A DNA stretch of 64,000 nucleotides from a virus: positions 12,233 to 76,232 of the IMG/VR virus record IMGVR_UViG_3300042922_000707; one strand, given 5' to 3'. This document shows positions 4,280 through 61,619 of this stretch, in pieces (within the stretch, counting starts at the first letter, position 1; each line of letters opens with the position of its first letter). Under the pieces are notes generated by a model. That model saw nothing but the letters and a program-made list of their open reading frames with translations, did no database searches and was not told the DNA's origin. The position numbers were made by a program, and so were the translations under genes.

Positions 4280-4309
4280 AGTATAAAAGGTTTCAATTTA
4301 TATTGTAAC
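4280..4309 (-). promoter_or_regulatory. 18-bp-spacer class promoter (peptide/polA)
   Basis: GTTACA-N18-TATACT, GA at spacer positions 10-11. Confidence 0.75.
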
Positions 4310-4311
4310 AT

Positions 4312-4340
4312 AAAAAAGGATGGAATATTAAATTCCACCC
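4312..4340 (-). terminator. Intrinsic terminator after ssb
   Basis: GGGTGGAAT/ATTCCATCC stem followed by T6. Confidence 0.75.
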
Positions 4341-4356
4341 CCTTAGCCAGCTCTAG

Positions 4357-5025
4357 TTAAAATGGTATGTCTTCATCATCGTCAATTGGCTTAAACCTAT
4401 TAGTCGCACCCTGTCTTTTTGTTGGAGTTGAGCTTGCCGCTCCTGCCCCACCCTTTAGCAATGCAACCATTTCATCATAGTCCTTCTTTAGTACAAAGTC
4501 ATAGATGTCTGGTCTCTCTGGTAACTTCTCAATTGGTATTAATAATTCACTTTCATCATATGGGTCGATGTCATAGGAAGTTCCAGTATCACCGGATTTA
4601 CCGTTTCTAAGTATTTCATACACATGCTTTCTTAAGTCTTTTTTCTTGCTTATTAAGTTAAGGATACGATTTATTACATCCCTACCTCTATCCCATAACT
4701 CTATCTTTGGTTCCTTTGGTACTTTTCCCTTTTCGTCTGGTCTCCAGCTTAACAGATACAGGAATAATCTTAGTGATGTCTTGCTACCCTGCTCACACAT
4801 TGCACAAGGTTTCTCATACATCTTTAGGCACTCCACATATCTCTTCTTTCCGTCCACCTCTATTTGGTGCGTAAGTAATACGTTTAGGTCATCCGCATCC
4901 TTGTGCAGGAATTGAACATCTGCTCTGTCCCCATCCTCTTTCAACCCAAAAAATCCGACATTTGCTCCAGTGGCAAAAGTGTCAATTGCGCCTTTAATTG
5001 CATCAATACCTTTAAAACCTGCCAT
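4357..5025 (-). CDS. gp32-like single-stranded DNA-binding protein
   Basis: His/Cys putative Zn ligands (H...C...CxxC), acidic tail DDDEDIPF; replication module context. Confidence 0.8.
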   Translation of the reverse strand: MAGFKGIDAIKGAIDTFATGANVGFFGLKEDGDRADVQFLHKDADDLNVLLTHQIEVDGKKRYVECLKMYEKPCAMCEQGSKTSLRLFLYLLSWRPDEKGKVPKEPKIELWDRGRDVINRILNLISKKKDLRKHVYEILRNGKSGDTGTSYDIDPYDESELLIPIEKLPERPDIYDFVLKKDYDEMVALLKGGAGAASSTPTKRQGATNRFKPIDDDEDIPF

Positions 5026-5087
5026 AAATAATTTCCACCTTTCTTGTTTTAAGTTTTTTAGTTTGGAAAGTGTTTAAAGTGTTTTGG

Positions 5088-5249
5088 TTAGGAATTAAGT
5101 TGTTGGTTAAATTGATTAATGACTAGTTTGAGTCTATTTTCAGGCATTATCCCATCGGCACTAACTTTTCCATCCTTCTCAGTAATGATTACAAAGTTAC
5201 CCCATAAAATATGTCTCGTCTTTTTTAGTACTGTGATAAGTCTTTTCAT
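5088..5249 (-). CDS. 53-aa hypothetical protein (not in ORF track)
   Basis: MKRLITVLKK...QQLNS*; AGGGAGG RBS. Confidence 0.6.
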   Translation of the reverse strand: MKRLITVLKKTRHILWGNFVIITEKDGKVSADGIMPENRLKLVINQFNQQLNS

Positions 5250-5287
5250 AGACCAATTCCCTCCCTAACAAATTACCTACGTTCCGT

Positions 5288-5341
5288 AAAATAAAAATAG
5301 GCTTTATACTGTACTTGTATTTTACAATGCAGTATAAAGCC
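5288..5341 (-). terminator. Long hairpin terminator overlapping the -10 of the next promoter
   Basis: GGCTTTATACTG...CAGTATAAAGCC inverted repeat followed by TATTTTTATTTT. Confidence 0.65.
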
Positions 5342-5360
5342 ATTCGTTCGTTTATGTAAA
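5331..5360 (-). promoter_or_regulatory. 18-bp-spacer class promoter (ssb operon)
   Basis: TTTACA-N18-TATACT, GA at spacer positions 10-11. Confidence 0.8.
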
Positions 5361-5367
5361 CTGGTTT

Positions 5368-5985
5368 TTAAAAATTATCTGCTGTGCATAACTGACTTGC
5401 TAGAAAAGGCTTAACCTTTCTCCATAGTAGACTAATGTATGCTCTGCTGTACCCTAGTAGCCTGGCAATCTCTGCGTCTGGCATTTCCGGGCTTTCCATT
5501 TTATACTTAACAATGCCCATAGTTATATCATCAAAGCCGTTGTGTTTTAGCATCATCTCAATTTCAACTCTTTCAAATCCATCCTCTTCATTACATTGGA
5601 ATTTTATAAATGCACTTCCTTCTTCCGAAGTACTTTCACCTTCACCGCATATACTAAATTCGTAACTGAAGCAATTTGAGTAGTTATTTGCCTTCTCATT
5701 GTCGTTTGTACTTCTTCTGCACAAGTTCTTTATCATGTTCTGTGTATGTGCATAGTACAATGTCGTAAATTTACCCTTCTCCGGATTATAGTTTCTTAAT
5801 GCCTCCCAACACCAGATACTGCATAGCTGTCTTTTCTCCTCAATTTCTCTCCCGTCCATGAGTCCCACCTTTTGGTACCATTTGTAGGAAGCATCCTCAA
5901 TTATTTTCTTACAGCCAATTATGAAGTCCTCTTCACCCATTTCACCATTTTTAACCATTAATGCCATTTCTTGAACATTGTTCAT
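5368..5985 (-). CDS. Phage sigma-70-like RNA polymerase sigma factor
   Basis: Region 2-like WEALRNYNPEKGKFTTL; region 4 HTH DAEIARLLGYSRAYIS. Confidence 0.8.
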   Translation of the reverse strand: MNNVQEMALMVKNGEMGEEDFIIGCKKIIEDASYKWYQKVGLMDGREIEEKRQLCSIWCWEALRNYNPEKGKFTTLYYAHTQNMIKNLCRRSTNDNEKANNYSNCFSYEFSICGEGESTSEEGSAFIKFQCNEEDGFERVEIEMMLKHNGFDDITMGIVKYKMESPEMPDAEIARLLGYSRAYISLLWRKVKPFLASQLCTADNF

Positions 5986-6209
5986 TTGTAAATCCTCCTA
6001 GTTTAGTTTAGTTTGTTATATCAAATCACACTTGTAGCGTGAATGTTGAAATTTTACCCAAAAATATCACCCATTTAATAATTCTCTGTCTAATATTACG
6101 CACCAAGCCAATTATCAAATGGGCTAAATTTTAATAGTTCAATTCTTAGTACTATAAGTAGGGTGCTTGCCGTCTATGTAATTTCATTATGTATTAACTT
6201 TACAATATT

Positions 6210-6238
6210 ATTATACAACATTATTTTACATATTACAA
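6210..6238 (-). promoter_or_regulatory. SigA-like promoter for the sigma gene (17-bp spacer)
   Basis: TTGTAA-N17-TATAAT in AT-rich intergenic DNA. Confidence 0.55.
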
Positions 6239-6390
6239 CAAATTTTTACTTATTTTTAAAAATTATGTATAATTTAAAAGTTATTTGCAAAAATAAGTAA
6301 TTTACACATATTGCCCTAATATGAGTTCCTTGATAAACTATTATATTCATTTGTCAATGTTCTTTTCTAAATAGTGCCTGCTAGTGCCTG

Positions 6391-8386: not shown

Positions 8387-9760
8387 CTAAAATATGTACT
8401 CACTTGTCTGTATTACTTTGTTTTCTTTCTTATCCTTGGAACCTCGCTTTGCCTGTGGTTGCTCGTCTTCCTCCTCTTCCGGTCTGTCGAAAAGATTTAT
8501 AAAGCCCCTATCTATGTCCCACACAAATTCCTGCTTTCCACCAATGCCGTATCTATTCTTCGGAACATTTATCATAACTATGTTTCCTTTTCTTGCAAAT
8601 GTAACAACACGGGTGGCATCCTCACCTGCACTGTTACTCTCCATGAACTGGTGAGTCTCTGGTGCATCTATCTGGTCACTGCCATTCTTTTTGTTCTTGT
8701 CCCTACCCTTTGCCCAGTCTCTTCCTATCTGACCCGTAACTAATATAGGTATTCTCTTTTTGCTGGACAGTCTGTAAAAGTTTCTAGTAAGGAATATATA
8801 CCTCTCTCTTATTGTTCCAAACTTCTTAACTGTACCTATTAAGGAAAGTTGGTCAATGCCAACAATATCTGGCTTAATAATATCAATTAAATTCTCAATG
8901 TCCTCAAAAGTACATTGAGCGTTGTCCTCATTTGTGTAAACCATAAAATCTGGATTGTCTTCATCCTTAAGCTCTTCAAGATACTTAATATAGTCGTCCT
9001 TTGATAAATCAATTGGTACTATTCTACCCCCAACACTTTTATCAACTTTTCCGAGCTCTGTATTACCTTTCATAAGCCCAAGGTTACTAAAATTTCCATT
9101 CCATGTATCAAAACGGAAACCCACAAGGACTTTGCCCATCTCTCTACTTATTAAAAGTACTTTCTTTTTTGACCTACCCCATGCCGCCCACAAAAGGAAT
9201 AAAAGCAGCCATGACTTACCTTCACCAAGGTAACCACCAAGCATTACAAAGTCTTCTTCTTGCCAACCGTTAGTCAGGTCATCCAACCATTCCAAACCAG
9301 TGGGTATCCCTGTCAGACCCTTCATTTCCATTCTTTTCAAATAGTCATCTTTTCTAACATCTGTGTCTTTCGCTAAATTGTGACCCACATGCCTAAAGTC
9401 AAGCGTTTCTGCAATTTCCCTTAGTTGTGCCCTTAGGAAGTCAACGGCGTCAAAACTATCCTCTCTTAGCTTTTCGTCACCTTCTTTAAGTATTGGAACT
9501 ATTTTATTATAGACATACTGCTCTCGTAGTGAATTTACTAAATATTCCTCCGACTCACCTACCTTAAACACCTCAAAATCAGGGTATTTTGCAAGGAACG
9601 TGTGTATATCAGGAACCTGTCCTACTTTTCTCCAATGCGTATGTATAAATTCAAATTCTTCTTTACAAAATTCAAAATAAGTTTCATTTATTTTGTTTCT
9701 CTGTATTATACCAATATCTTTCTGCTCCAAAATGTGATTAATTATTTGATACTCTACCAA
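8387..9760 (-). CDS. DnaB-like replicative helicase
   Basis: GIPTG..LD, Walker A GYLGEGKS, ISREM, Walker B IVGIDQL, KNRYG; start moved to TTG at 9760 (AGGGAGGT RBS). Confidence 0.92.
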   Translation of the reverse strand: MVEYQIINHILEQKDIGIIQRNKINETYFEFCKEEFEFIHTHWRKVGQVPDIHTFLAKYPDFEVFKVGESEEYLVNSLREQYVYNKIVPILKEGDEKLREDSFDAVDFLRAQLREIAETLDFRHVGHNLAKDTDVRKDDYLKRMEMKGLTGIPTGLEWLDDLTNGWQEEDFVMLGGYLGEGKSWLLLFLLWAAWGRSKKKVLLISREMGKVLVGFRFDTWNGNFSNLGLMKGNTELGKVDKSVGGRIVPIDLSKDDYIKYLEELKDEDNPDFMVYTNEDNAQCTFEDIENLIDIIKPDIVGIDQLSLIGTVKKFGTIRERYIFLTRNFYRLSSKKRIPILVTGQIGRDWAKGRDKNKKNGSDQIDAPETHQFMESNSAGEDATRVVTFARKGNIVMINVPKNRYGIGGKQEFVWDIDRGFINLFDRPEEEEDEQPQAKRGSKDKKENKVIQTSEYIF

Positions 9761-9782
9761 GTCAATGACCTCCCTACAATAT

Positions 9783-9812
9783 AGTATAAACGAACTCAAC
9801 TACTTTTGTATT
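9783..9812 (-). promoter_or_regulatory. 18-bp-spacer class promoter (helicase-primase)
   Basis: AATACA-N18-TATACT, GA at spacer positions 10-11. Confidence 0.65.
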
Positions 9813-9930: not shown

Positions 9931-10650
9931 CTAAAAGCTCGAACGTAAGTCGGAGGACCTAACTTCATAGCACTCACACCCATTTACTATTCTGCTGTGC
10001 AACCTACTACCCAACACACCCTGCAATTTCTGTGGCGGTAGGTTACCAGTTAATATAAGTCCCCTGTCATTTGACAATGCAGAGTCTACAATATTAAAAA
10101 GTAAATCTAAGGTAGTTTTAGTCTGACCGTCAAACCCAATGTCATCAATCATTACTAAGTGGCTCTTATAAATGTTGTTATTTATTAATTCCAAAAAGTC
10201 GGACTTGTTTGAAAACCTAGCTTTATAAGTCTCTGCATATTGGCTGAATGGAACAAACAGCACAGGAGTAAATTCATTCTCAACGTACTCCATTATCCTA
10301 TACTCATTAATCATCCTTCTAAGGAAGTCGTTTAGCAGTACCAAGCCAAGTGAAGTTTTGCCCGAACCTACGTTTCCATATAGGTATATGCCCTTTGTAT
10401 AGTTAGCGTCGGATGTCAATCTCTTTATGTGCTCTACACCAAGGTCCACATCCTCCCTCACAATTTTGGATAAATCCTCTGGAACCCAATCCCTATACTT
10501 CTTAGGGACATTGTTTATTCCATAAATGTACTCTGTTTTATAGTAAACAGCACAGCCATCGTTGCACTGCCCTCTTCTGCACGTTCTGGAAACAGTGCAT
10601 TTATTCCTATCAAATACAAAGTCCTGTTCATCAAAACTCGTAAACTTCAT
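9931..10650 (-). CDS. DnaC/IstB-like helicase loader ATPase
   Basis: GIYLYGNVGSGKT, VMIDDIG, LTGN, RLHSRI. Confidence 0.88.
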   Translation of the reverse strand: MKFTSFDEQDFVFDRNKCTVSRTCRRGQCNDGCAVYYKTEYIYGINNVPKKYRDWVPEDLSKIVREDVDLGVEHIKRLTSDANYTKGIYLYGNVGSGKTSLGLVLLNDFLRRMINEYRIMEYVENEFTPVLFVPFSQYAETYKARFSNKSDFLELINNNIYKSHLVMIDDIGFDGQTKTTLDLLFNIVDSALSNDRGLILTGNLPPQKLQGVLGSRLHSRIVNGCECYEVRSSDLRSSF

Positions 10651-12263
10651 TATACCAAGCCTCCTATCCTTATATCTGTCCCGATACCATACACTTTCTC
10701 ATGTATAGCCTTTTGTATTTCATCGTATTCCTCATTTGCAGGTATCATAACATTTTCTACATAGTCCTCTAAATACATAAAGTCCTGTGAAGATATTTTA
10801 TCCTTAACCTCATCTGTAAGATATCCATTAACAAACCACCTACTTATGTACCTACCAAAACTTGGTATATCGTCATCCTCAAAGTAGTCATTTGGAACCC
10901 ATTTGATACGCCTCATATAATTTCTATCTTCTTTTCCATCAATAAGCCCGTACTTCTTTAGCCACTTGGGTTTCTCATGTTTCCACAACTCCATCAACTC
11001 AGGGAGCTTATCTCTATAGTCACTATCTTCTTTGTATACAACACTGCCTGACCCTGCCACAGTAGGAACTCCTGAATACTCGGACAAGTTTATTATCTGT
11101 TTTAAAATACTACCCTTATTATTTAATAGTAAATGAGCATAGATTGGATTTGGATAGCTTTCTAAGTCTAGTCCCTTTATCTTACCTTCACGGTAAGTCT
11201 CTAAAAATACATCAACCACCTTTGCCAGCTGTTCCATTGTTAATCCATAGGAACCATTCTGCTCATACAGTAGTTTAAATGTTCTGAAACTCCTTTCGCT
11301 TACCTTACATGCGGTGCCATAAATTTCCTTTAGTCGATGCTCATAGTATAAACATAACTCATCCACATTGAAATTCTTAAATTCCTTTTTACTTAATTTA
11401 TCTAAAAACTCTTGAGAAATTTTATCCTTCTTTTCTTGATGCTCTTTTTTCTTTTTCTGCTCTTTTAAACTTTTGGCTTCCTTATAGGACAAAGGTTTAT
11501 CAAAGTCCTCTTTTTTGATGTCTGTATTTAGAAGGTGAGTAAAAAATGATTTAGACTGAAAATGCGTAGCATTATTATTTTTTATATTTGTATTTTTTAT
11601 ATTTGTATGTTTCTGTGTGCGAGTTTCCGCATACGGTGGTGTGCGAGTTTCCGCACACGGGGGTGTGCAATTTCCCGTAACTTCCTTATTTCCTAAGTAC
11701 TCATCCAGCTCTTCCTTATCCTCAATACCACGTAAGCTATCAAAATACTCAATAAATTCATTTCTTTCTTTTAGCATTTCTTCATAATCTATCTCACTGT
11801 CTATGCCATTGTACCGCATAATTTCTTCTTTAGATAAACATTTCCATAAATCAAGGAAGTATAAAGTAGCCTCATTTATATGTAGGTCAAAGAATTTATT
11901 TATGTATTCTATGCTGTCATAGTAATCAATAATGCTCCTGTTTGAAATTCTGTAGATGTACCCCTTTTCCTCAATTCCTAATATCTTATCAAAAACCTGT
12001 CTTCTAGATATACCTAAATCACTTGCTATAGTTTCAACCCTTGGAAAAACAAAACCCTTGTAGCCAACTCCAGAATTTTTAAAATTGTATGATATCAAAT
12101 AAGCTATAACAAGCCTTTCATCTAATTTAAGTGCCTGGTCGGTCAATAGACTATTGGGTATAACTGTAACTCCATCACATCTTCCCATAAAATTATGGTT
12201 TATCCAATACCCCTTGACACTTGCTTTAAGCGACAATTCTGCGGTATTTTTGAAGTAGTTCAT
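10650..12263 (-). CDS. Phage replication initiator (N-terminal wHTH, lambda O-like architecture)
   Basis: FPRVETIASDLGISRRQV...EEKGYI HTH; internal iterons; adjacent to loader; start moved to MNYF (AAGGAGG RBS). Confidence 0.78.
   Translation of the reverse strand: MNYFKNTAELSLKASVKGYWINHNFMGRCDGVTVIPNSLLTDQALKLDERLVIAYLISYNFKNSGVGYKGFVFPRVETIASDLGISRRQVFDKILGIEEKGYIYRISNRSIIDYYDSIEYINKFFDLHINEATLYFLDLWKCLSKEEIMRYNGIDSEIDYEEMLKERNEFIEYFDSLRGIEDKEELDEYLGNKEVTGNCTPPCAETRTPPYAETRTQKHTNIKNTNIKNNNATHFQSKSFFTHLLNTDIKKEDFDKPLSYKEAKSLKEQKKKKEHQEKKDKISQEFLDKLSKKEFKNFNVDELCLYYEHRLKEIYGTACKVSERSFRTFKLLYEQNGSYGLTMEQLAKVVDVFLETYREGKIKGLDLESYPNPIYAHLLLNNKGSILKQIINLSEYSGVPTVAGSGSVVYKEDSDYRDKLPELMELWKHEKPKWLKKYGLIDGKEDRNYMRRIKWVPNDYFEDDDIPSFGRYISRWFVNGYLTDEVKDKISSQDFMYLEDYVENVMIPANEEYDEIQKAIHEKVYGIGTDIRIGGLV
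11571..11677. other. Putative phage replication origin (iterons plus AT-rich tract) inside the initiator gene
   Basis: 24-bp period repeats GTGTGCGAGTTTCCGCAYACGGKG at 11615 and 11639, partial at 11663; adjacent AT-rich TTTTTATATTTGTAT x2. Confidence 0.7.
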
Positions 12264-12780
12264 ATGCCTCCTCCTTATCCTTTGCGTCAATTATTATACT
12301 AAGTTGTGTATTGGATAATTCAGTTATTAGTACCGGGTAATCAAAATATGCGTGGGATAATGTTATGCCCTGTAACTCCTTAACCATACTAAAGAAGTCC
12401 CTCCAGTTGCCCATATAATTATCACACACCTTTAGCCAATCAAGTTCATAGAAGTCAAAGTAATGAGCAATTCCCATCAAGTAGCAGTACAACTTCAATT
12501 GCTCTGAACTAAGTTTCATTGCCAGTTCTATGGGAAGGTGTAACAAATTGCCCTTAGTGAACTCTTCACATTCTAAAAATGACTTGTAGTTTTCTGGCTC
12601 TGGTAACTCTCTTTTGCCAAAATTTAAGTGCATTGGACTACAGAAATCCACTATATGTATGTCTATTTTTATAAACTTTTTTGTCCTGTCATATATCATC
12701 TCTTGTTCCAATTTGGATATTTTTCTAAGTATGTGGTGAGACAATTCCGTACCATATAACTCAATGCCATCTAACTTCAT
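12226..12780 (-). CDS. Hypothetical protein
   Basis: AAGGAGG RBS; directly upstream of the initiator. Confidence 0.7.
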   Translation of the reverse strand: MKLDGIELYGTELSHHILRKISKLEQEMIYDRTKKFIKIDIHIVDFCSPMHLNFGKRELPEPENYKSFLECEEFTKGNLLHLPIELAMKLSSEQLKLYCYLMGIAHYFDFYELDWLKVCDNYMGNWRDFFSMVKELQGITLSHAYFDYPVLITELSNTQLSIIIDAKDKEEAYELLQKYRRIVA

Positions 12781-12826: not shown

Positions 12827-13027
12827 TTAGTCTTTGGCATATTCCATTATAACTCTTTCCACTTCCCTACTACATGCATTCCATCCCTGTTCCCAAACCT
12901 TGTCAATTTCCTCTTTTGTTTCATCACCTGTTAATACTAATTCCACCTCTGCAGATGGCTTTATGTACTGTGTTCCAATTTGAGCTGTAATGCCCAAACC
13001 AACCTTAATTCTTCTTAAGCTAGCCAT
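12827..13027 (-). CDS. Hypothetical protein
   Basis: AGGAGGT RBS before MASLRR. Confidence 0.7.
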   Translation of the reverse strand: MASLRRIKVGLGITAQIGTQYIKPSAEVELVLTGDETKEEIDKVWEQGWNACSREVERVIMEYAKD

Positions 13028-13062
13028 GTCTAACACCTCCTAAACAAATTATTTTGTATTGC

Positions 13063-13092
13063 AGTATAAAGCCAATCTACCCTTAATGTAAA
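13063..13092 (-). promoter_or_regulatory. 18-bp-spacer class promoter (initiator operon)
   Basis: TTTACA-N18-TATACT, GA at spacer positions 10-11. Confidence 0.8.
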
Positions 13093-13113
13093 GCGAATTC
13101 CTTCCACTCAGGC

Positions 13114-13156
13114 AAAAATAAATACCGCTATAGGTCGCCAACCCTTAACGGCATTT
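13114..13156 (-). terminator. Intrinsic terminator
   Basis: AAATGCCGTTA/TAGCGGTATTT stem (with GU pairs) followed by ATTTTT. Confidence 0.6.
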
Positions 13157-13180
13157 AATGGGGGTATATTAAAATGTATG

Positions 13181-13828
13181 CTATTTTTCTGACTTAGGCC
13201 CACTCTTCGGCTTTTTCATCATCAATGCATAAGTTATATTAACTATTGTCGCATCTGCAATGTCGGACATTGTAAGTGAGCCTAACGATACAGCTTCCTT
13301 AACAGCGTCCTCATTTGGTATTTCTTTTACCTCAATGCACTTCTTAACGGAATTCCATAAATCATATTTATCTGAGGCTGGAATTGGAGTTGCACTTGAA
13401 AATGCGTCAAGTGCCTGCTCTTCTGTAAAATTGAAATGTTCCATAAGGTATTCTCTTGCTGTCTGCAAATCTGAAAATACTTCTCCGTTCATTTCCACAC
13501 GTACAAGCTCCTCTGCATTTTTATACATAAGGCTAGTAAGTTGAATACCATTTATTTCCTTTTGCACTTTAAATAAATCCAGCTCGAAATGTCCAAGTCT
13601 GCTCTTTAGAACATTAAGTAGCTTTTCCGAGTCAATCTTACTTCTGTCCTGTGCAACTAACTCTAAATCCTTTCCCTCATGGGTTACTTTCTTCATTGCT
13701 TTTTCCTGCATGTAGGGCTTTATTTCGGATTTTATTGTTTCCAGTTCCTTTGTATACTTGTCCACAATTGCGTGAATTTCTGCATACCGCTTTACTTTCT
13801 CATTAAACTGAATTTCATTTTCTATCAT
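13181..13828 (-). CDS. Coiled-coil protein, possibly Gam/Gp157-like
   Basis: N-terminal coiled coil then short beta segment; family assignment weak. Confidence 0.4.
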   Translation of the reverse strand: MIENEIQFNEKVKRYAEIHAIVDKYTKELETIKSEIKPYMQEKAMKKVTHEGKDLELVAQDRSKIDSEKLLNVLKSRLGHFELDLFKVQKEINGIQLTSLMYKNAEELVRVEMNGEVFSDLQTAREYLMEHFNFTEEQALDAFSSATPIPASDKYDLWNSVKKCIEVKEIPNEDAVKEAVSLGSLTMSDIADATIVNITYALMMKKPKSGPKSEK

Positions 13829-13856
13829 TTAATACTGCCTCCTTGTTGTTTAGTAC

Positions 13857-13886
13857 ATTATAAAACAACTCAAGGGTTATTGTAAA
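13857..13886 (-). promoter_or_regulatory. 18-bp-spacer class promoter
   Basis: TTTACA-N18-TATAAT, GA at spacer positions 10-11. Confidence 0.8.
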
Positions 13887-13896: not shown

Positions 13897-14205
13897 TTAA
13901 TCGGGTTGGTTTTTATAATTAGGTAAATGTTTACCTCTGTCACCCCACTCAGCTCGATTAAAGTATGCAAGTTCTCCGTATTTGTCTTTATCCTTATACT
14001 TCTCTATTTCTTCTATTTGAGCGTCATTCCAATATCTTATACCACGTGTCCCGGGTCTATAAGATTTCGGTATGGGCCTTTGTTGCCCTTCTTCCTCCAG
14101 CTTGTCTCCGAATTTATCCCAATTTCGTAAAGTGTTGGGATGAACATCAACAATCTTAGCGACTTCACTAATTTTTCTGTAGGGCATGCCCTTTATATAT
14201 ATCAT
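13897..14205 (-). CDS. MerR-family HTH DNA-binding protein
   Basis: ISEVAKIVDVHPNTLRNWD...R.GTRGIRYW; no effector domain. Confidence 0.85.
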   Translation of the reverse strand: MIYIKGMPYRKISEVAKIVDVHPNTLRNWDKFGDKLEEEGQQRPIPKSYRPGTRGIRYWNDAQIEEIEKYKDKDKYGELAYFNRAEWGDRGKHLPNYKNQPD

Positions 14206-14259: not shown

Positions 14260-14288
14260 ATTATACAATATTTCTATACTAATGTAAA
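14260..14288 (-). promoter_or_regulatory. SigA-like promoter for the merR-like gene (17-bp spacer)
   Basis: TTTACA-N17-TATAAT. Confidence 0.7.
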
Positions 14289-14301: not shown

Positions 14302-16029
14302 TTAAATGGCGTCCAATATGTCCTTAATTTCGTTTGGTGTAATTGCCCGCTTGCCTGTTATTATTTCATCAAAAATCTGCTGTTTACGTGATAGAACTTC
14401 ATTGACTATATACTCATCTATGGAGCCCCTACACAAGAGTCGAATAATTGTTACATTATTCTTTTGTCCTATACGATAGGCTCTATCCTCTGCCTGTGCT
14501 ATGTAGGCGGGTGCCCATTCCAGGTCCATAAATATTACATAGGTAGCCACAGTTAAATTCAATCCCTCTCTGCATGACTGGGAAGTACCAATAAATACTT
14601 TACAGCTATCATCATCTTGAAATTTGTCTGCCTGCTTTTTCCTGTCCTGTGGAGCAACTACTCCTGTGACATACGCAGGATTGTATTCGGCAAGCAGTAA
14701 CTTCAGTCTTTGTGTCTCTTCCTCAAATTGACTGAATACAATTGCCTTCTCACCATTTTTTACTATATCTGAAATAATGTCAATTAGTTCCTCATGTTTT
14801 ACACTTGGAGCATCACTACCTATTAATTCCGGGTTAGTTGTAACTTGCTTTAGTCTTAGCAGTTTTACCATGGGATTGGAAAGCCCTCTACCTATACCCA
14901 ATTCTGAAAGCTCTTGTTTTATCCGGTCTCTTACCGCCTTGTAAATCTGTGTCTGTTTACCACCCATCTCGACATAAACATTCTTATAATTCTTTTCCGG
15001 CATGTCCATAACTTCCGACTTTGTTCTTCTAAGCATATTGGACCTAACTATCTTACCCAACTCATCCAATTTTCTAGTACCCGTTATCTCTCTTCCAAAT
15101 CTACCCTTAACTGACTCATAATAGGACCACTTGAAGTGGTGAAATTCCCTACTCTCAACACCAATAAAAGTTAAAGGTGTCCAGGCCTCTTCATGGTTAT
15201 TTATAATGTAGGTACCCGACATGACTACCTTAAATGGTATATCCCGCAACTGACTCAATGCTCCCCAAACAGCCCCACTCGGGTTTTTCATTTTGTGGCT
15301 TTCATCTATTGCTATACCATCTATTGGTATTAGTTCAAGTTGCTGAATATGGTTTTTGACCTGCTCATAACCCATAATAAAATATACAAGCTCTTTGCAT
15401 GTATATACATTTCTTAATTGCTCCAACCGCTTTTTGCTGTCACCCTCTATGGTTATTACTTTTGCATTGGGTAACCAGAATTTAATTTCATCCCTTACAT
15501 TATACTTTAAGCCAGCTTTAGTTACATACAAAACCTTGCTAAACCCATCTCCATATTTTTTCCTTCTCCACTCACAGCCACTGATAAACTCCAACGTTTT
15601 CCCGAGTCCCATGTCATCCCCAAGTAGGAAGGAATTTCTATTCATCATATAGTGAAACGCTTCTATTTGGTGACCATAGGGTTTTAATTGAATGTCACCT
15701 TTGAAGGGCATTTCGATTGGGTATTCCTCGACACATTCCAAATTTGTGTAGTACTCTCTTTTTGTCATGTCCCTCTTCATCTTCATTAATTTAAGTTCCG
15801 GTATGTCCCCAATAATTTCAATCTGCTCAAAGGTTCTCAGCACTTTGGTTATGTCCAATAACGGTACTTCTATCTCACCGGAGGAAAGATTTTTCCACTT
15901 TCTAGGTAGCTCCTGTACCTTGTCCTTATAGTACTTACTATCAGGAACTTTTAGAAACAGACTGTACTCACAGATATGTTTCATATCCACTGCATCTCTC
16001 TTTTCCATGGATACATTCATTATCATCAT
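14302..16029 (-). CDS. SNF2-family helicase/translocase
   Basis: LGDDMGLGKT, AIDESH, SGT, MLRRTK, IVFSQF, EGLNLT, QAEDRAYRIGQ. Confidence 0.93.
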   Translation of the reverse strand: MMIMNVSMEKRDAVDMKHICEYSLFLKVPDSKYYKDKVQELPRKWKNLSSGEIEVPLLDITKVLRTFEQIEIIGDIPELKLMKMKRDMTKREYYTNLECVEEYPIEMPFKGDIQLKPYGHQIEAFHYMMNRNSFLLGDDMGLGKTLEFISGCEWRRKKYGDGFSKVLYVTKAGLKYNVRDEIKFWLPNAKVITIEGDSKKRLEQLRNVYTCKELVYFIMGYEQVKNHIQQLELIPIDGIAIDESHKMKNPSGAVWGALSQLRDIPFKVVMSGTYIINNHEEAWTPLTFIGVESREFHHFKWSYYESVKGRFGREITGTRKLDELGKIVRSNMLRRTKSEVMDMPEKNYKNVYVEMGGKQTQIYKAVRDRIKQELSELGIGRGLSNPMVKLLRLKQVTTNPELIGSDAPSVKHEELIDIISDIVKNGEKAIVFSQFEEETQRLKLLLAEYNPAYVTGVVAPQDRKKQADKFQDDDSCKVFIGTSQSCREGLNLTVATYVIFMDLEWAPAYIAQAEDRAYRIGQKNNVTIIRLLCRGSIDEYIVNEVLSRKQQIFDEIITGKRAITPNEIKDILDAI

Positions 16030-16045
16030 GCCACCTCCTTTATAC

Positions 16046-16075
16046 AGTATAAAACCTGTCAGCCTAAAGTGTAAA
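16046..16075 (-). promoter_or_regulatory. 18-bp-spacer class promoter (SNF2)
   Basis: TTTACA-N18-TATACT, GA at spacer positions 10-11. Confidence 0.8.
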
Positions 16076-17727: not shown

Positions 17728-17756
17728 ATTATAACATTCCCTAGTATAATTGTAAA
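17728..17756 (-). promoter_or_regulatory. SigA-like promoter of the lysis cassette
   Basis: TTTACA-N17-TATAAT with extended TGn. Confidence 0.65.
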
Positions 17757-33316: not shown

Positions 33317-33345
33317 ATTATAGCACAGTAAAAAGTCTAATGCAA
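33317..33345 (-). promoter_or_regulatory. 17-bp-spacer promoter for the tail appendage genes
   Basis: TTGCAT-N17-TATAAT with TGn. Confidence 0.65.
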
Positions 33346-47259: not shown

Positions 47260-47288
47260 ATTATAATATAAAAATTTCCATTATGCAA
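47260..47288 (-). promoter_or_regulatory. 17-bp-spacer promoter for head genes
   Basis: TTGCAT-N17-TATAAT. Confidence 0.65.
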
Positions 47289-49409: not shown

Positions 49410-49438
49410 ATTATAATACAAAAGCCCATGGAATACAA
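49410..49438 (-). promoter_or_regulatory. 17-bp-spacer promoter for terminase, overlapping an upstream terminator
   Basis: TTGTAT-N17-TATAAT; GCCCATGG/CCATGGGC hairpin at 49424-49450 followed by TTTT. Confidence 0.6.
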
Positions 49439-51795: not shown

Positions 51796-51832
51796 CTATT
51801 GTTCCTCCTTAATAAATTAAATGCTTTAATAC

Positions 51833-51862
51833 ATTATACACGGGTTCAGTTATGATTGTAAA
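51833..51862 (-). promoter_or_regulatory. 18-bp-spacer class promoter
   Basis: TTTACA-N18-TATAAT, GA at spacer positions 10-11. Confidence 0.8.
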
Positions 51863-53281: not shown

Positions 53282-54631
53282 CTAAAATAGTACGTCATTC
53301 TTTTCCGGGTGTATGCCCTTAAAGACTGGAAATTGTAGACTCAAGTTGCCATTTTTGTCTTTCATTTCTTCATAGTATTGAACCCTTATTACTTTATCTA
53401 TTATTAAGTTTGGATTGTCCCAGAACCTGATACGATGTCCGTCTATTCTTTCCCCGGTCTTTGCATCCTTCTCAAAGGTTTTAAATCCGGAACCTACACC
53501 AACCTTGAATCCTTTATAGTCCACGTACACTCCACCTAACTTGCCCTTTAGGTTTCCTTTTCCCTCAAACACACCTGTGACAACTAAGTCTGTCTCGGTC
53601 ATTTTCTTTATTTTTAGCATATCGGATGACCTGTCCCAATTGTAAGGCACATCAAATTTAACCATCAGACCTTCCCACTTCTTGCTCAACGCCATTTCAA
53701 AGCAGGTGGCTATCTCAAGGTCAGGGTCAATATCCTCTTCAAAATTATACTCAAATACGTTATCCAACAACACCAAATTACTTGCTTTGCTTTCGTAAAG
53801 ATATCCCTGAAGTAATCTATAGCGTAGAAAGTATCCCAACTGGGTTCTCTTTTCTTCCCACTCTGATATGGACATTGTATCCCAGATAAAATAGTTTGCA
53901 CTTGTTTTATCTATAGACTGTTCACTGAATGCTAACTCCTGTATTTTAGAGAACTTGTCATTTTTATCTGCCAGCTCCCCGTCAAATACACATCCCACTG
54001 GTAGGCATTGGGCAACCTGCTGTTTTATAAAGTCGAACCCTGGTATTTGAACGCCATTACTACTCTTAATTACTACACCATCGGGGTAATGAAAGGCAAC
54101 CATACGATAACCATTCATTTTACGCTGTAGCCAAAACGGTCTGTTTATTGACTCTCCGCTCCACAGCTCAGCCTTCATTACATTAAATACTGGTATTAAA
54201 TCCTTAAATACTTGGTTGATTGTCTTTGAGCTCATCCCCATTTTTAAGTCCTTTAGGAATATTCTTCTTGACCACTCAAAAAACAACTCGTCATCCTGAT
54301 TTATAAAGGCTCTCACTGCCGTCATTGCGTTATTGCCAGTTAATTCATTACTGGATAGTTTATCAAGTAGCTCAAATAGCTCACCTGCATCACTGCCTAC
54401 TTTAAACAAAGCTCGGCCGGAACGAAGAGCAACAGGTTTCTGTTCATAATGCCCAACCATCCTTTCTCCTATATTATACACTAAAGCCTTATTAAATGTA
54501 TAGTACAGAATTTGTTTGAGTAGTTCTGATTCATTTTGCTCCAGAAGTGACAACTTTTCATTTCGGCTGGAAGTTTTCTCAATTTGTGAGAACACCTCAA
54601 AGCATTTCTTTAACTCACTAACTTGTGCCAT
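53282..54631 (-). CDS. ATP-dependent DNA ligase
   Basis: Motif I QRKMNGYR, VFDGEL, YFIWD, EGLMVK, MLKIK, VGSGF, SLQFPVF; start moved to MAQV. Confidence 0.92.
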   Translation of the reverse strand: MAQVSELKKCFEVFSQIEKTSSRNEKLSLLEQNESELLKQILYYTFNKALVYNIGERMVGHYEQKPVALRSGRALFKVGSDAGELFELLDKLSSNELTGNNAMTAVRAFINQDDELFFEWSRRIFLKDLKMGMSSKTINQVFKDLIPVFNVMKAELWSGESINRPFWLQRKMNGYRMVAFHYPDGVVIKSSNGVQIPGFDFIKQQVAQCLPVGCVFDGELADKNDKFSKIQELAFSEQSIDKTSANYFIWDTMSISEWEEKRTQLGYFLRYRLLQGYLYESKASNLVLLDNVFEYNFEEDIDPDLEIATCFEMALSKKWEGLMVKFDVPYNWDRSSDMLKIKKMTETDLVVTGVFEGKGNLKGKLGGVYVDYKGFKVGVGSGFKTFEKDAKTGERIDGHRIRFWDNPNLIIDKVIRVQYYEEMKDKNGNLSLQFPVFKGIHPEKNDVLF

Positions 54632-54642
54632 TGTACCCTCCA

Positions 54643-55885
54643 CTATTTTGATTTACCTGAACAGTATTCATATTTTGTAGCCTTATACTGATTGTCCCTT
54701 ACTACATCTGCACTCAATCCGAAGCGTTTTCCGGTTATGCCACATGCACTACACCTATATACATCATGGACTGAATGCTTGCCAACAACTGTGTAGGCGT
54801 TCTGTTTTTCCCAATTGTGGGCAACCTTAGACTGACTGGTATCCTCTAATATTTCCACATAGACTAATTCTCTTGGTGCCTCATTTGGTCGGAGTGTGTT
54901 ATTAAAGTTATCAATTAGGTCTATTGCATACTGCTCTGCATCCGACCCGTCTTTGATATCATACTCCTCTGCCCATTCCATTTGTGTTACCTTGTTTCTA
55001 ACCTTCATTGAGATTTTCATTTTATTCCTCCTCTGCATCCCAATTTTCTAATTCCACATTGAACCCACATTTCTGTAGTATCTCAGTTGATTGTTTATAT
55101 TGGCTACCATAGAATGTGTGTGTGGACAAATAATAGTGCCCCTCAAAGGAGTTGGGGTCCTTTGGGTTTTTTGGCTCTATCCATCCTGAGTACTGCTCTA
55201 TTTTCAGTATGTGCGTCTCGGATTCTTGATTTATTGCCCTAAGCTCTCTCCAATTTCTAATAAGTATGGGTTTTTCATCCTTGTCCATTTCTATCCCTCC
55301 CTGTGTTTTATTTTTAATGACGGTGTGGTTTTTGGGTAACTGTAGCCTTTAAATCCGATACAAACTGCTGAAAGTTCTCTTTTTGCATAGTTATAAAAGA
55401 GCCCTGCTGTAAGTTGCAAGGGACGGAATTAACGCTTAACGTAAACGCAACTTGCTCTTTCATCTCGGAAAGAACTCTTATACTATAAATGTTCTTGGAC
55501 ATTATTATCCACCTCCTCTTTGGCACTGTCCATTGCAATCCCCAACATACAAAATGAGCACCTGTTGTCACAAGTACCCTGGCATTGATGCTCGGAACAA
55601 CTGACAATAAGTGCTTGATATGCTCTTTCAATATCTTGATTTCTTGCCACTGGCATGTTATCTACACTCCTGAACAAGATTTACTATAACAGCATGTGCG
55701 TTGGATAACAAAACAGCGGCTTCCGCTCTAAATGCGTTTGGGTTTAGGCATTCATTTCGGATAGTTCTTATTACCTTTAAAGTAGTTTCCACGTCTGCAT
55801 CTGGCACAACTGCATCTTCATACACATCCATACGATTTAGGTCAACTTTACACTCTGTCTCAAGTTCTAACTCTTTTTCTTCCAT
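54643..55885 (-). CDS. Cluster of small hypothetical early genes (54643-55020, 55022-55288, 55314-55502, 55483-55656, 55658-55885)
   Basis: Tightly packed; starts chosen from RBS positions. Confidence 0.6.
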
Positions 55886-56039
55886 TTCAATACCTCCTCT
55901 ATTGGTGGGGCGGACAGGACTGGCTGCCTGTAAGTCTCTCGGTATTGCATTAAGCAAGTTTGATGGACCTGACTACCACCAAAGGTTGCGACCCTTTTTC
56001 CAAAGCGTGCATTATTTCTGCCACCGCCCCTTATAGTAC

Positions 56040-56069
56040 AGTATAAAACCATTCATTTGCTACTGTAAA
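56040..56069 (-). promoter_or_regulatory. 18-bp-spacer class promoter
   Basis: TTTACA-N18-TATACT, GA at spacer positions 10-11. Confidence 0.8.
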
Positions 56070-56584
56070 ATAATTTTTTGTATGAGTTCCGTATACTTCG
56101 AATCATCAGGCTCCAAATTTAGCAAACTTTCCTGAAAGAAGGTTCCTACGTATTTAAACTCAACCCTCACTACATTCCCATCTTTAGCCTTGTACCACCT
56201 AGGTCCAGTGTTAGTCAGATACTTAAAGTACTCAAAACCACTGCTATTCCACTGTTTAGCAGGAGCGATATCACCCTCACCCCGCTTTACGACAACTAAT
56301 TCACGTGTATCCTGCAGACCATAGTCAATGCTACCATTTGACCTTTTATACTTGTATACCTTACCAGTTACTTTAACTTCCGTACCTACTGTCAACTCTG
56401 TCTTCAGCCACGCTTTTGCCATAGTGAACCATAAATGGTCAGATATTATCTCATCTCCACGCCTAACACCAGTAATTATAGCGGTATTCCACTTTGAGCC
56501 ATCGCCCTCCTTAACACCATACCGAACAAAAGTACCCGTAATAGTAATTAGACTGCCCACAAGTGATTTAAGCTTGTCTCTCAT
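56060..56584 (-). CDS. Hypothetical protein, OB-fold-like N-terminus
   Basis: GTFVRYG...DHLWF...G.V.KY...DYGL. Confidence 0.6.
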   Translation of the reverse strand: MRDKLKSLVGSLITITGTFVRYGVKEGDGSKWNTAIITGVRRGDEIISDHLWFTMAKAWLKTELTVGTEVKVTGKVYKYKRSNGSIDYGLQDTRELVVVKRGEGDIAPAKQWNSSGFEYFKYLTNTGPRWYKAKDGNVVRVEFKYVGTFFQESLLNLEPDDSKYTELIQKIILQ

Positions 56585-57601: not shown

Positions 57602-57611
57602 TTTATACCTC

Positions 57612-58742: not shown

Positions 58743-58914
58743 CTCTTATATATTCAACAATGCAACCCACTAACTTTCTGGGTAACACTAAAATCTTACT
58801 TATCCTGGCACGAAGTGTTGGGCTATAACAGTTATTGTTCGTCATAAAGTCGCATTTACCACCTAACTTCTTGCATGTTTTACAAACCCATGGCATAGTT
58901 CATTCCTCCTTCAT

Positions 58915-59229
58915 CTACATATCATCCTTACAGTGTATCCCACCCGGATACATATCATACCAAAATTCATCCTCCTCCTGTTCATCCCCAAAACTCAATT
59001 CTAGTGCATTGAATATTAAGGCAGGGTTTGCAATTGCAGTTCCACGCTCCTTTATGGAGTAAGTACGGTGGCAGAACGGATAATTACTGCAACCAAAAAA
59101 TCTTTGTTGTCCCTGTCTCACCACTAAAGTCCCATTTCCACAGTCGCATAGCACATCAGTAGGTGTTCCTTTACCAGCGTTAATCCATTCCCTTAAGGTT
59201 TCTTCACTCACTTGCTTAAAAGTACGCAT
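58915..59229 (-). CDS. Stand-alone topoisomerase-type C4 zinc ribbon protein
   Basis: CDCGNGTLVVRQG..RFFGCSNYPFC. Confidence 0.78.
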   Translation of the reverse strand: MRTFKQVSEETLREWINAGKGTPTDVLCDCGNGTLVVRQGQQRFFGCSNYPFCHRTYSIKERGTAIANPALIFNALELSFGDEQEEDEFWYDMYPGGIHCKDDM

Positions 59230-59233
59230 TTGA

Positions 59234-60203
59234 CTAACACCCATCCTTGGGCAGTAGGTCCGAAGCCTTCCCCATTATTATGTCTACTAATTTGTCTATG
59301 TCTTGCTCGCCTATGGGTCCACCATCCGCTCTGTCCATGTGTATTTCTATTGTGTCATGTACCATACTAAACGGTATTCCAGCCGCAATCAGCCTCTCCG
59401 CAATCTTACCCTCAAACATGACTTGTTCCGCCTGTTTGGACTGTTTTGCAAGGTGCTCAAATTTTACTATGTGCCCGCTTTCACACATTGGGCAACTCGC
59501 CTTTAGTCCCCCATTCGGTATTAAGTGCCTGTGCCCAAATTGGGGTTCAGTATTCAATATCCTAAGTGTTAAATCCTTATCAAACTTACCATTCATTGTA
59601 CGACCTCCTAATCACACATAAATTTCATTACACTAATTATATTAGATATTGCACCGATAGGTGTTGCCTTATCTAAATAAATGTGCTGTTCCCCATTTTT
59701 GCATATAGCCATCTGACCTGTTAGAGTGTTAATTATAAATGTATAGTCGTCAGTTCCGTAGTATTCTTTATTGATAACGCCTATGTTGGTTATAATGTAC
59801 AGCACATTGTCCTTTATTTGAGTCATTTGAGTCTGTTTATGCTCGTCACCCAGCCCAATTTTATTCAGTAACTTCTGTTTTGCCTCTATCAATTCTTTTG
59901 ATTCCTTCTCACAACATTGCAAGCAGAGTACTTCCTCATTTATAACAACTCCGTTGTCAACATTGCACGTAGAACTATCAAAACTTAGTTCCTCTTCACA
60001 TTGGGTACATTTTGTGTACAGTTTCATTATTTTAACCTCCTTAATAATTCTTCCTTTATGCAATCTGCGTAGCCCACTGTGGATATACAGTTTGGATTGA
60101 ATCTTGCCGCTCTCCAAAGGTGTGGGTATACTATAACCAATTCCTCATTTGTTAACTCTTTTGGGTCTCTCGGACCACTAATATCAATTCCTTCAACTTC
60201 CAT
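59234..60203 (-). CDS. Small hypothetical genes (59234-59596, 59608-60027, 60027-60203)
   Basis: RBS-supported; Cys pairs. Confidence 0.6.
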
Positions 60204-60204
60204 C

Positions 60205-60843
60205 TTATTTTTCCTCCAATTTATAAGGTCTATTCCAACATTCAATGCAATTCTTAAATTTAGTGCAGTCTTCCTCAGATGCTTTTCCAAAATAATTTTT
60301 AATGCATGTCTCCGGAATACCCCTCATATTTACGGGTATGTCGGGCAATTTTTCCCTCAGAACGCTTATGTAAGTCGCTACTGGATGCTCCTTAGCCCAG
60401 TTTTTAACCTGGTCAATGAATTTTTTGGGGTCCAGTTGCTCAAGTTCGTGGCAGGAAACATGTCTCTTGTTCATATATACACTGAATGAGCAATATTTGC
60501 ATTCATGTTGCCCAATACCATTACAGCTTTTTGTCATTCTAGCTTTGTGCGTTAAATACTCCAAAGCACTCATTTCCTGAGTTGCTTCTTTCTCTGTCAC
60601 CTCAAACGGCCTAAGTGAAAGGGCAACATATTTGATATATGGTCCGACTTCCTCCTGTCCTTGCACAAATGTAATTTCACGTTTGACTGACTTGCCTATA
60701 TAGATACCCTGTTTGTGCCCTTTTATTACTATCTTGTCTCCGATACTAAAGTATCCGTCGCTCTTTCTGACGATTATAAAATTTACTCTTCCGTCAGCAA
60801 GTGGCTCAAATTTTTCTTTTTGTACTGCAACTGAATGTTCCAT
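60205..60843 (-). CDS. Degenerate DUF3850/ASCH N-terminus fused to a Cys-rich domain
   Basis: F..L.DG...F...K.D..F.IGD...YIGK..R.ITFV; C-terminal C..CW. Confidence 0.55.
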   Translation of the reverse strand: MEHSVAVQKEKFEPLADGRVNFIIVRKSDGYFSIGDKIVIKGHKQGIYIGKSVKREITFVQGQEEVGPYIKYVALSLRPFEVTEKEATQEMSALEYLTHKARMTKSCNGIGQHECKYCSFSVYMNKRHVSCHELEQLDPKKFIDQVKNWAKEHPVATYISVLREKLPDIPVNMRGIPETCIKNYFGKASEEDCTKFKNCIECWNRPYKLEEK

Positions 60844-60986
60844 TTGAATCCTCCCTAGTTATTTATTTTACTCTAATTCTTGTTCCATCATATACGCTCT
60901 ACACAGTTGTTCATCCTCACATAAGTAGCAAACTGCATCCGTATCATCATATGTTCCAAAACATGGCATATAATTACCCAACCTTT

Positions 60987-61533
60987 CTATAATTCCCTGC
61001 CACAGAATGGGCAGTGGGATATATCTATACGCTCTTTGTTTAGTAGAAGGTGCTTACCAAGAGTATCAAACTCCATAACCTTTTCCCTATAGTTTACAAT
61101 GACACGGAACGTTCCGGTTAGGCCCATAGCACATTGAAATATTCTAATCTGACTTGCTATCAAGCACCTGCATGTTGAAGTATGAGAAACTTCACAATCC
61201 GCCGCTCCCTGTTCACTTTCAAACTCAATTCCACATACTTCACATTTCCATTTACTTGCCTTCATCTTTAACTGCCTCCAACTTAAGTCTTTCCTTCAAT
61301 GCCACTATGTCATCAAGCTGTTTATTGATTAGCTTGCGGTCCATTCCCTTGTCAACAAATAACATCAGTACATACAATTCGTAAAGTTCCTCCGGTGTCT
61401 TATCTTTGGCTAAATATTCCATGTCATGCATAAATATTTTAGACTCATAGTTTTGTTTCACCTGCTCACGTACTCTGTGCATTCTCTCTGGACTAAATGG
61501 TTCAAAGACTCCTTTTACCTTAGACATAATCAT
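60987..61533 (-). CDS. Two hypothetical genes (60987-61265 Zn-binding; 61252-61533)
   Basis: CEVCG...CPFCGREL; first genes after the promoter at 61590. Confidence 0.6.
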
Positions 61534-61589
61534 TTCTCCTTTTTATAAAAGTTACCCAAACCGGGCACCTAAATACTTAAACTTAGTAC

Positions 61590-61619
61590 ATTATAAAACC
61601 ACTCAGCGCCAACTGTAAA
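61590..61619 (-). promoter_or_regulatory. 18-bp-spacer class promoter heading the early operon
   Basis: TTTACA-N18-TATAAT, GA at spacer positions 10-11. Confidence 0.8.

Follow-up and report, generated by a model that had tools for sequence, protein, structure and literature searches.

A promoter class with a fixed 18-bp spacer heads the non-structural transcription units of a soil-metagenome phage and may be read with a phage sigma factor

The DNA analysed here (the window, 64,000 nt) is positions 12233-76232 of a single 76,232-bp phage genome, IMG/VR record IMGVR_UViG_3300042922_000707, which has 39% G+C and carries essentially all genes on its minus strand. An initial annotation of the window had described nine minus-strand promoters with an 18-bp spacer and an invariant mid-spacer GA, and had proposed that they form a phage-specific class; we followed this element, called class I below, through the full genome and its relatives. 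In the direction of transcription the genome begins with a 2.4-kb gene-poor region with a DnaA-box array, followed by ∼25 small open reading frames (ORFs) and a DNA ligase gene (61.5 to 52 kb), and then by a DUF932 operon leading to the terminase, portal, head, tail and lysis genes (51.8 to 16.3 kb). A replication module comes next (SNF2 helicase, MerR-like protein, HTH_36 protein, DnaC-like loader, DnaB, primase, sigma candidate, SSB and PolA), and the clamp-loader and 7-deazaguanine genes lie last, in the 12 kb outside the window.

Among public sequencing runs, only a soil metagenome (DNA) was found to contain this genome, and no RNA runs with the genome are listed. A second contig, IMGVR_UViG_3300042922_000600 (75,238 bp), is ∼96% identical and has the same start and end points relative to the outermost class I promoters; these shared end points suggest that the phage genome has defined physical ends, rather than being randomly circularly permuted. 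A nucleotide search against 50,697 phage records gave zero matches, and a search with the terminase protein returned only relatives at ∼24% identity.

Class I sites are named here by the first base of the -35 box, whereas the initial annotation used the low end of the -10 box. All nine promoters were found where they had been placed (Table 1), and the details of their description held as well. Seven have the -35 box TTTACA, with GTTACA at 4309 and AATACA at 9812; the spacer is 18 bp in each of the nine, with GA at spacer positions 10-11 in all of them and TGA in seven. The spacer ends in TT in eight (51862 has TG), and the -10 box TATA(C/A)T is followed by G(C/T)A in eight (9812 has ATA). The motif search across the full genome and relatives that had been proposed as a check gave four more sites in the other 12 kb of the genome, hence 13 in total, and revealed 18-bp classes in four relatives, which are described below. 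Over the 13 sites the column profile is ttTat TTTACA aTa....TGAnTGGTTT TATACT GTAyTa.A., with TTTACA in 11 sites (a 5/6 match to the sigma-A consensus) and GTTACA or AATACA in the other two. The -10 box is TATACT in nine sites and TATAAT in four and never varies in the A of position 2 or the T of position 6; the spacer is exactly 18 bp in 13/13 and GA is in register in 11/13. Information is high in the -35 box, at spacer positions 9-11 and 13-18, in the -10 box and in the 3-5 bases behind it, and is near zero at spacer positions 1-8.

This pattern is far from random expectation. With TTTACA-N8-TGA-N5-TTTATAMTGYA and at most two mismatches the window gave 8 matches, against none in 100 shuffles, and the chance of a GA count of 11/13 at any register is ∼8e-10. 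When the 13 sites are turned into a position weight matrix, they score 29.5-44.5 bits, with the rest of the genome below 14 bits and 0 matches on Markov shuffles; since no further genome site reaches 14 bits, the class has no weaker members. The exact signature has 5 matches in this 76-kb genome and only 25 scattered single matches, in AT-rich taxa, among 185,579 prokaryote species genomes (596 Gb). None of the Bacillota genomes in that set carries a cluster of the signature, and among 2.9 million viral contigs the exact pattern is multi-copy in one contig only, the near-identical relative. Because the prokaryote matches are scattered singles, the class I signature is not a host promoter type, which is in line with the phage-specific class that had been proposed.

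Comparison with the ∼96% relative points to selection on the class. All 13 sites are retained there, and substitutions fell on 4/325 conserved positions but on 9/143 variable core positions (Fisher p = 0.004). One of the four conserved-position changes turns TATAAT into the class consensus TATACT, and site 61619 has TATAAT here and TATACT in the relative. Moreover, spacer positions 1-8 and the flanks are unrelated among copies while specific positions are invariant, and thus the class I copies are not recent duplicates. A ribosome-binding site (RBS) and start codon lie 16-81 nt downstream of each window site, and at least five class I sites are directly preceded by a terminator-like hairpin, i.e. 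the sites stand where real promoters are expected at transcription-unit borders. Judged from these sequence patterns, the 13 sites are real promoters which form a discrete class kept by selection, and, by the gene content annotated behind them, class I heads every non-structural transcription unit of this phage. The initial annotation had them heading early or replication operons, and this is roughly right, except that 51862 heads an operon (DUF932 gene, CxxCxxCC gene and two ORFs) immediately preceding the terminase gene. Behind promoter 4309, a short Cys-rich ORF with CxxC motifs (4158-4250, minus strand) precedes the DNA polymerase gene and is absent from the simple ORF list.

A second set of promoters, the host-type class II, comprises seven window promoters with a spacer of exactly 17 bp and an exact TATAAT, plus one more outside the window. 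Six of them were those which the initial annotation had contrasted with class I (before the sigma, MerR-like, lysis, tail, portal and terminase genes), and they indeed have 17-bp spacers and lack the GA register. Their -35 boxes are TTGCAT, TTGTAT, TTGTAA or TTTACA; TTGTAA occurs ∼5 nt behind the -10 box in several, and the -10 box is often followed by AaT.TTGTAA. The 18-bp and 17-bp sets do not overlap in this genome. The TTGCAT/TTGTAT boxes and the proximal spacer of class II resemble class A of Clostridium phage phiCTP1. Oddly, the genes behind class II include late ones (terminase, portal, tail, lysis) in addition to those for the sigma and the MerR-like protein.

Table 1. Promoters, candidate regulators, repeated elements and promoter classes of relatives (window coordinates unless marked genome; relatives in their own coordinates).
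Feature	Position (strand)	Sequence or description	Context
Class I	4277..4309 (-)	GTTACA-N18-TATACT-GCA	After terminator hairpin; heads small Cys-rich ORF and family-A DNA polymerase (1737-4157, Pfam)
Class I	5328..5360 (-)	-35 box begins 8 nt past sigma stop codon	Heads 53-aa ORF and SSB (4357-5025)
Class I	9780..9812 (-)	Weakest member: AATACA; ATA behind -10 box	Heads DnaB-like helicase (8387-9760)
Class I	13060..13092 (-)		Heads 66-aa ORF, 184-aa ORF, HTH_36 protein (10650-12290), DnaC-like loader (9931-10650)
Class I	13854..13886 (-)		Heads 215-aa ORF (13181-13828)
Class I	16043..16075 (-)	-10 box to ATG, 16 nt	Heads SNF2-type helicase (14302-16029)
Class I	51830..51862 (-)	Spacer end GTG, cf. 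Dp-1/MS1 class B	Directly behind terminator
Class I	56037..56069 (-)	Top matrix score, 44.5 bits	Heads small ORFs and ATP-dependent DNA ligase (53282-54643)
Class I	61587..61619 (-)		First strong promoter of small-ORF region (61527 to about 56900)
Class I	genome 1196		Outside window
Class I	genome 6293		Outside window
Class I	genome 7740		Outside window
Class I	genome 9060		Outside window
Class II	6210..6238 (-)	TTGTAA-N17-TATAAT-AATATTG	Sigma gene
Class II	14260..14288 (-)	TTTACA-N17-TATAAT	MerR-like gene
Class II	17728..17756 (-)	TTTACA-N17-TATAAT with TGn	Before lysis genes
Class II	33317..33345 (-)	TTGCAT-N17-TATAAT, TGc extended -10	Inside tail module
Class II	47260..47288 (-)	TTGCAT-N17-TATAAT	Before portal gene
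Class II	49410..49438 (-)	TTGTAT-N17-TATAAT	Behind terminator hairpin; before large terminase gene
Class II	genome 8985	17-bp spacer	Before one gene outside window
Class II look-alike	63236-63207	18-bp spacer	Far right end
Sigma candidate	5368..5985 (-)	205 aa with only regions 2 and 4	In the conserved slot between primase and SSB
MerR-like protein	13897..14205 (-)	Short MerR-family helix-turn-helix (HTH) protein: minimal HTH plus helix, no effector domain	Alternative candidate factor
Bipartite element	38756, 1685, 47680, 9871, 16142 (-); 61700 (+)		
Dp-1 17-bp class		TTGACT-TTATTCACTCATTATCG-TATAAT	
phiCTP1 17-bp class		TTGNAT-N17-TATAAT-AATATT	
Flasso 17-bp class		TTTACA-N17-TATAAT	
Dp-1 and MS1 18-bp class	5-6 sites (Dp-1), 6 sites (MS1)	TWWACA-N18-TATAWT; mid-spacer GAAWTT; GTG before -10	
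phiCTP1 18-bp class	9 sites	TTTAAT-N18-TATAAT	
Flasso 18-bp class	11 sites, e.g. 63680, 64708, 67655, 74094	CACTTA-N18-CTATAT-[GA]TACT	

The replication module holds two genes whose products could act at class I. The sigma candidate matched phrog_351 (sigma factor, E 2.9e-5) and TIGR02937 (E 1.2e-4, below its cut-off), and gave no match in a Pfam scan. A profile built from it and three close homologues retrieves proteins with Sigma70_r2 and r4, and the distant homologue P0004 passes the Sigma70_r2 cut-off (homologues P0002-P0005 are 79-36% identical). In its predicted structure the C-terminal four-helix domain is modelled better than the rest; a fold search with the model gave no match at E ≤0.001, its weak rows being mostly sigma factors. 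Orthologues were found in Bacillus phage Flasso (E 7e-10) and as gp69 of Streptococcus phage Dp-1 (E 5e-4), and both Dp-1 gp69 and gp74 of Streptococcus phage MS1 pass the Sigma70_r2 cut-off. By these profile and homology matches, 5368-5985 is a real but highly divergent sigma-70-family protein; it has no detectable sequence similarity to SPO1 gp28, SPO1 gp34 or T4 gp55. Searches for related loci with the sigma alignment and with P0003/P0004 in metagenome, genome and viral contigs gave only the near-identical relative, and a protein comparison with relatives found no second phage sigma gene in this phage. A 405-nt gene-free stretch (5986-6390) lies upstream of the sigma gene, with a 650-nt counterpart at the same place in Flasso; both are AT-rich with several promoter-like sites, and they may be a regulatory region or an origin. 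The second candidate, the MerR-like protein, matched Pfam MerR_1 with 25.8 bits (cut-off 21.6) and MS1 gp66 by tblastn (E 8.6e-8), and its gene is kept just behind the SNF2 helicase gene in MS1 (gp66), Dp-1 (gp63) and Flasso.

Protein searches led to four relatives, Flasso, Dp-1, MS1 and Clostridium phage phiCTP1. All five phages have the module order helicase, MerR-like (4/5), DnaC-like, DnaB, primase, sigma, SSB and PolA, with an orthologous sigma in the same slot of Dp-1, MS1, phiCTP1 and Flasso. In phiCTP1 this slot is occupied by gp43 (12841-13467), annotated as a ‘putative response regulator’, which aligns with the slot-1 sigma family (E 4e-8 to Flasso) and is probably a sigma factor orthologous to 5368-5985. 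The temperate Bacillus subtilis phage 268TH007 (38302-40438) has a primase-sigma-SSB-PolA backbone with an arbitrium AimR regulator between primase and sigma; it shows no obvious class pair by eye and was left out of the comparison.

Each of the four relatives carries a 17-bp class and an always-18-bp class, both internally uniform and promoter-like. The 18-bp classes stand before genes of the kinds that class I also heads, i.e. ssb-polA, dnaC-dnaB, dnaN, clamp loader and deazaguanine synthesis. The sigma gene lies behind a 17-bp promoter in this phage, MS1, Dp-1 and phiCTP1; that promoter is TTGTAA-N17-TATAAT in both this phage and MS1, and the proximal spacer AATAATGTTn-TATAAT-AATATT is common to the sigma promoter of this phage and phiCTP1 class A. 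Upstream of the Flasso sigma gene there is only a variant promoter without a -35 box. At the other end of the gene, an 18-bp promoter begins 5-8 nt past the sigma stop codon in this phage, Dp-1 and MS1, and 5328..5360 is syntenic with the promoters at 52652 in Dp-1 and 52260 in MS1. TTTACA, the mid-spacer GA and GTA behind the -10 box are features common to class I and other 18-bp classes. From these likenesses we infer that class I is the local member of an 18-bp family in Bacillota siphophages. In Dp-1, joining the ends of the linear record (56480-56506 to position 1) completes a class A promoter, TTGACT-N17-TATAAT, with an 18-bp promoter next at position 40; a class A-then-B tandem recurs at 4788/5287.

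The Flasso 18-bp class is the one which departs furthest from sigma-A promoters: a -35 box of sigma-A type is absent, and so is the -11A/-7T of the sigma-A -10 box. Its sites lie between a terminator and an RBS and precede replication and nucleotide-metabolism genes, and this class appears to be undescribed before. Since the sigma-A determinants are missing, its reader must be other than sigma-A, and the slot-1 sigma is the sole conserved candidate that our comparison found for this role. Many Flasso 18-bp copies also have an AAAA..TTTT dyad in the spacer. Moreover, the recognition helix of sigma region 4 starts with SR(A/S) in this phage, Dp-1 and MS1, where the -35 box is TWWACA, and with TSAGV in Flasso and phiCTP1, where it is CACTTA or cacTTTAAT, a suggestive co-variation between the aligned helix and the -35 box of the 18-bp class.

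Based on the kinship of class I with the 18-bp family, the Flasso class and the helix co-variation, we lean, with modest confidence, towards a requirement of class I for a phage factor, most likely the phage sigma. The mechanism would be as follows. Host sigma-A polymerase would read the 17-bp class II promoters, including that of the phage sigma gene; the phage sigma would then bind the host core polymerase and read class I, with its region 4 taking TTTACA and its region 2 taking TATAMT and the next G. The distance between the two domains of this sigma would set the spacer at 18 bp, and the spacer elements TGA (-22 to -20) and TGGTTT (-18 to -13) may be holoenzyme contacts or provide a DNA shape needed for the 18-bp geometry. 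As the hexamers resemble the sigma-A consensus, a mixed mode is also possible, in which weak early reading by sigma-A is followed by a boost from the phage sigma. In a less likely form of the same dependence, sigma-A and the conserved MerR-like protein would read class I together.

Two other targets for the phage sigma were considered and dropped, as was one other reading of the spacer. Class II was dropped because its Dp-1 counterparts are near-perfect sigma-A promoters heading early-type genes. The repeated motif AGAATTAAGG was dropped since the relatives lack it. Reading TGA as a shifted -35 box, or one of extracytoplasmic function (ECF) type, was rejected since nothing is conserved at the required downstream distance. 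The motif AGAATTAAGG belongs to a bipartite element, TATAAATGTATTACCC, ∼24 nt, (GGC)AGAATTAAGG, with a second half identical in six copies and a first half that can be made out clearly in three; the element is absent from Flasso, Dp-1, MS1 and phiCTP1. Five copies are oriented like the genes and lie before portal-adjacent, tail, DnaB, SNF2 and post-PolA genes, and the copy at 61700 runs divergently to class I promoter 61619, into the DnaA-box region.

Several observations weigh against dependence on a phage factor. Both class I hexamers, TTTACA and TATAMT, match the sigma-A consensus at 5/6 or 6/6 and 18 bp is within sigma-A tolerance, so that host polymerase alone could read them; the TTTACA box is also used in three class II promoters here and in the 17-bp class of Flasso. 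In the small-ORF region at 52-62 kb class I is the only strong promoter type, and this region looks immediate-early and hence should be readable by unmodified host polymerase. The predicted structure of the sigma has a low mean pLDDT (predicted local distance difference test) of 56. The co-variation of helix and -35 box covers two phage groups only and could reflect a single evolutionary event, and Dp-1, MS1 and phiCTP1 carry a second phage sigma as a possible alternative reader of their 18-bp class. Finally, the 18-bp classes of Dp-1, MS1 and Flasso are not recognised by the class I matrix, and the kinship between class I and the other 18-bp classes rests on geometry, position and partial sequence.

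The strongest rival takes up the first of these points: host sigma-A polymerase alone would read class I, as a constrained, phage-optimised early/middle class in which the upstream T-run, the spacer TGA/TGGTTT and the G at -6 tune binding, opening or escape. T4 early promoters are a precedent, with extra consensus regions and nevertheless read by sigma-70 (PMC2988021). We consider this reading doubtful, though a serious contender, since all 13 sites are off the sigma-A optimum twice (T for G in the -35 box, and 18 instead of 17 bp) and nine have C at -8, while the same genome has exact 17-bp TATAAT promoters elsewhere. Moreover, the 18/17 split is strict in four relatives, one of which has an 18-bp class unreadable by sigma-A, and the signature is found as a promoter type in no bacterial genome of the set searched. 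If sigma-A sufficed, no conserved target class would be left for the conserved phage sigma; the one further repeated motif, AGAATTAAGG, does not occur in the relatives compared. The proposal of the initial annotation, that host RNA polymerase with a phage factor, or the phage sigma, reads class I, is partly supported, by the divergent sigma, the 17/18-bp pairs in four cultured relatives, the Flasso hexamers and the helix co-variation, and is held back by hexamers so close to the host consensus.

Dependence on sigma-A together with an accessory phage protein which is not the sigma, either the MerR-family protein acting on an over-long spacer or some sigma-binding protein that favours class I, is improbable. 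The MerR-like gene has its own 17-bp promoter and keeps its place behind the helicase gene in MS1, Dp-1 and Flasso; the spacer, the region bound by MerR-type activators, holds the conserved bases, and partial dyads can be seen by eye in 18-bp spacers of Dp-1/MS1 and Flasso (e.g. CACG..CGTG, AAAAGT..ACTTTT). However, the class I spacer is 18 bp without a dyad in its consensus, instead of the MerR-type 19-20 bp with a dyad operator, and an activator of this type cannot replace the -10 determinants missing in the Flasso 18-bp class. Very improbable is a by-product of recent promoter-cassette spread by duplication or recombination, with no function of its own for the 18-bp spacer and GA: several sites directly behind terminator hairpins recall mobile promoter/stem-loop cassettes, and some Flasso and Dp-1 copies have near-identical spacers, but the copies here are unrelated outside their invariant positions, substitutions avoid the conserved positions, and the 18-bp geometry is kept across phages with otherwise diverged promoter sequences.

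If dependence on the phage sigma is taken beyond this genome, the promoter sequences allow a broader and more tentative proposal, which we put below even confidence. A widespread group of Bacillota siphophages, including Dp-1, phiCTP1 and Flasso, may run a sigma cascade with spacer length as its code, in which sigma-A would read 17-bp promoters, including that of the phage sigma, and the phage sigma would read 18-bp promoters. In some lineages, this phage among them, the hexamers would have stayed host-like, with one extra base pair and a few mid-spacer bases choosing the holoenzyme.

In outline, T4 and SPO1 already provide examples of promoter classes specific to phages and of cascades of phage sigma factors. 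Our literature search found no paper on a class with host-like hexamers that is distinguished by an additional base pair in the spacer and by fixed mid-spacer bases, and a partition into 18- and 17-bp promoters with host-like hexamers, conserved with one sigma family across phages of four host genera, appears to be undescribed; the phage in a pneumococcal RNA-seq study (PMC6755750) is temperate and unrelated. Should the phage sigma read class I, it would be a minimal two-domain sigma that tells its own promoters from those of the host mainly by geometry. The question is testable in culture, with Streptococcus pneumoniae R6 as host for Dp-1 and MS1, Bacillus cereus for Flasso and Clostridium tyrobutyricum for phiCTP1. 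Spacer length may mark the promoters read with a phage factor, and the comparative result is a ready rule for annotating temporal classes in this phage group.

Among known systems, sigma-A/sigma-70 promoters have a spacer optimum of 17 bp, and class I resembles them in both hexamers and differs in the spacer, which is never 17 bp. ECF sigma promoters have a -35 element of the GAAC/AAC type and a -10 element of the CGT type, 16-17 bp apart, and neither motif occurs in the class I consensus. MerR-type promoters (merT, copA, bmr) have a 19-20-bp spacer with a dyad operator in it. Class I is like them in its over-long spacer, its conserved spacer bases and a MerR-family gene in the module, and unlike them in having 18 bp in 13/13 and a consensus, aTa....TGAnTGGTTT, without an internal dyad; the only symmetry of class I is TACA ... 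TGTA across the whole promoter. With the PeSL promoter/stem-loop cassettes of T4-type phages class I shares early-type promoters directly behind terminator-like hairpins at gene-block borders, but only ∼5/13 sites abut a hairpin, the hairpins are mutually unrelated and there is no sign of mobility.

T4 early promoters are sigma-70-dependent ‘uber’ promoters with UP, -35, TGn and -10 elements as well as a consensus beyond the hexamers, read by unmodified sigma-70 polymerase (Hinton 2010, PMC2988021). Like class I, they form a large set with extra consensus positions, are distinct from host promoters and head non-structural genes. They match the host elements very well, including the TGn which class I lacks, whereas class I has a fixed 18-bp spacer, conserved bases from -22 to -16, and a separate 17-bp class and a phage sigma beside it. 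The Dp-1 and MS1 records (NC_015274.1, KY629621.2) annotate promoters of the form TTTACA/TTAACA-N18-TATAWT with mid-spacer GAAWTT before queuosine, dnaN, dnaC, ssb and portal genes, listed as generic -35/-10 predictions with the classes unseparated. Their proximal spacer is GAATTTgGTG, compared with TGAnTGGTTT here, the GA register varying by one base, and these two phages have a second sigma (gp24 in Dp-1, gp21 in MS1).

Phage sigma factors that read temporal promoter classes include SPO1 gp28 and gp33/34 and T4 gp55. Like this phage, these systems have a sigma-70-family protein of their own, encoded downstream of a host-type promoter, and another discrete class of promoters that heads later genes, an arrangement with sigma-cascade logic. 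Hexamers in the promoters read by SPO1 gp28 and gp34 do not resemble the host consensus, whereas the hexamers of class I are host-like and the class is set apart mainly by one extra spacer base pair and by the sequence of the spacer.

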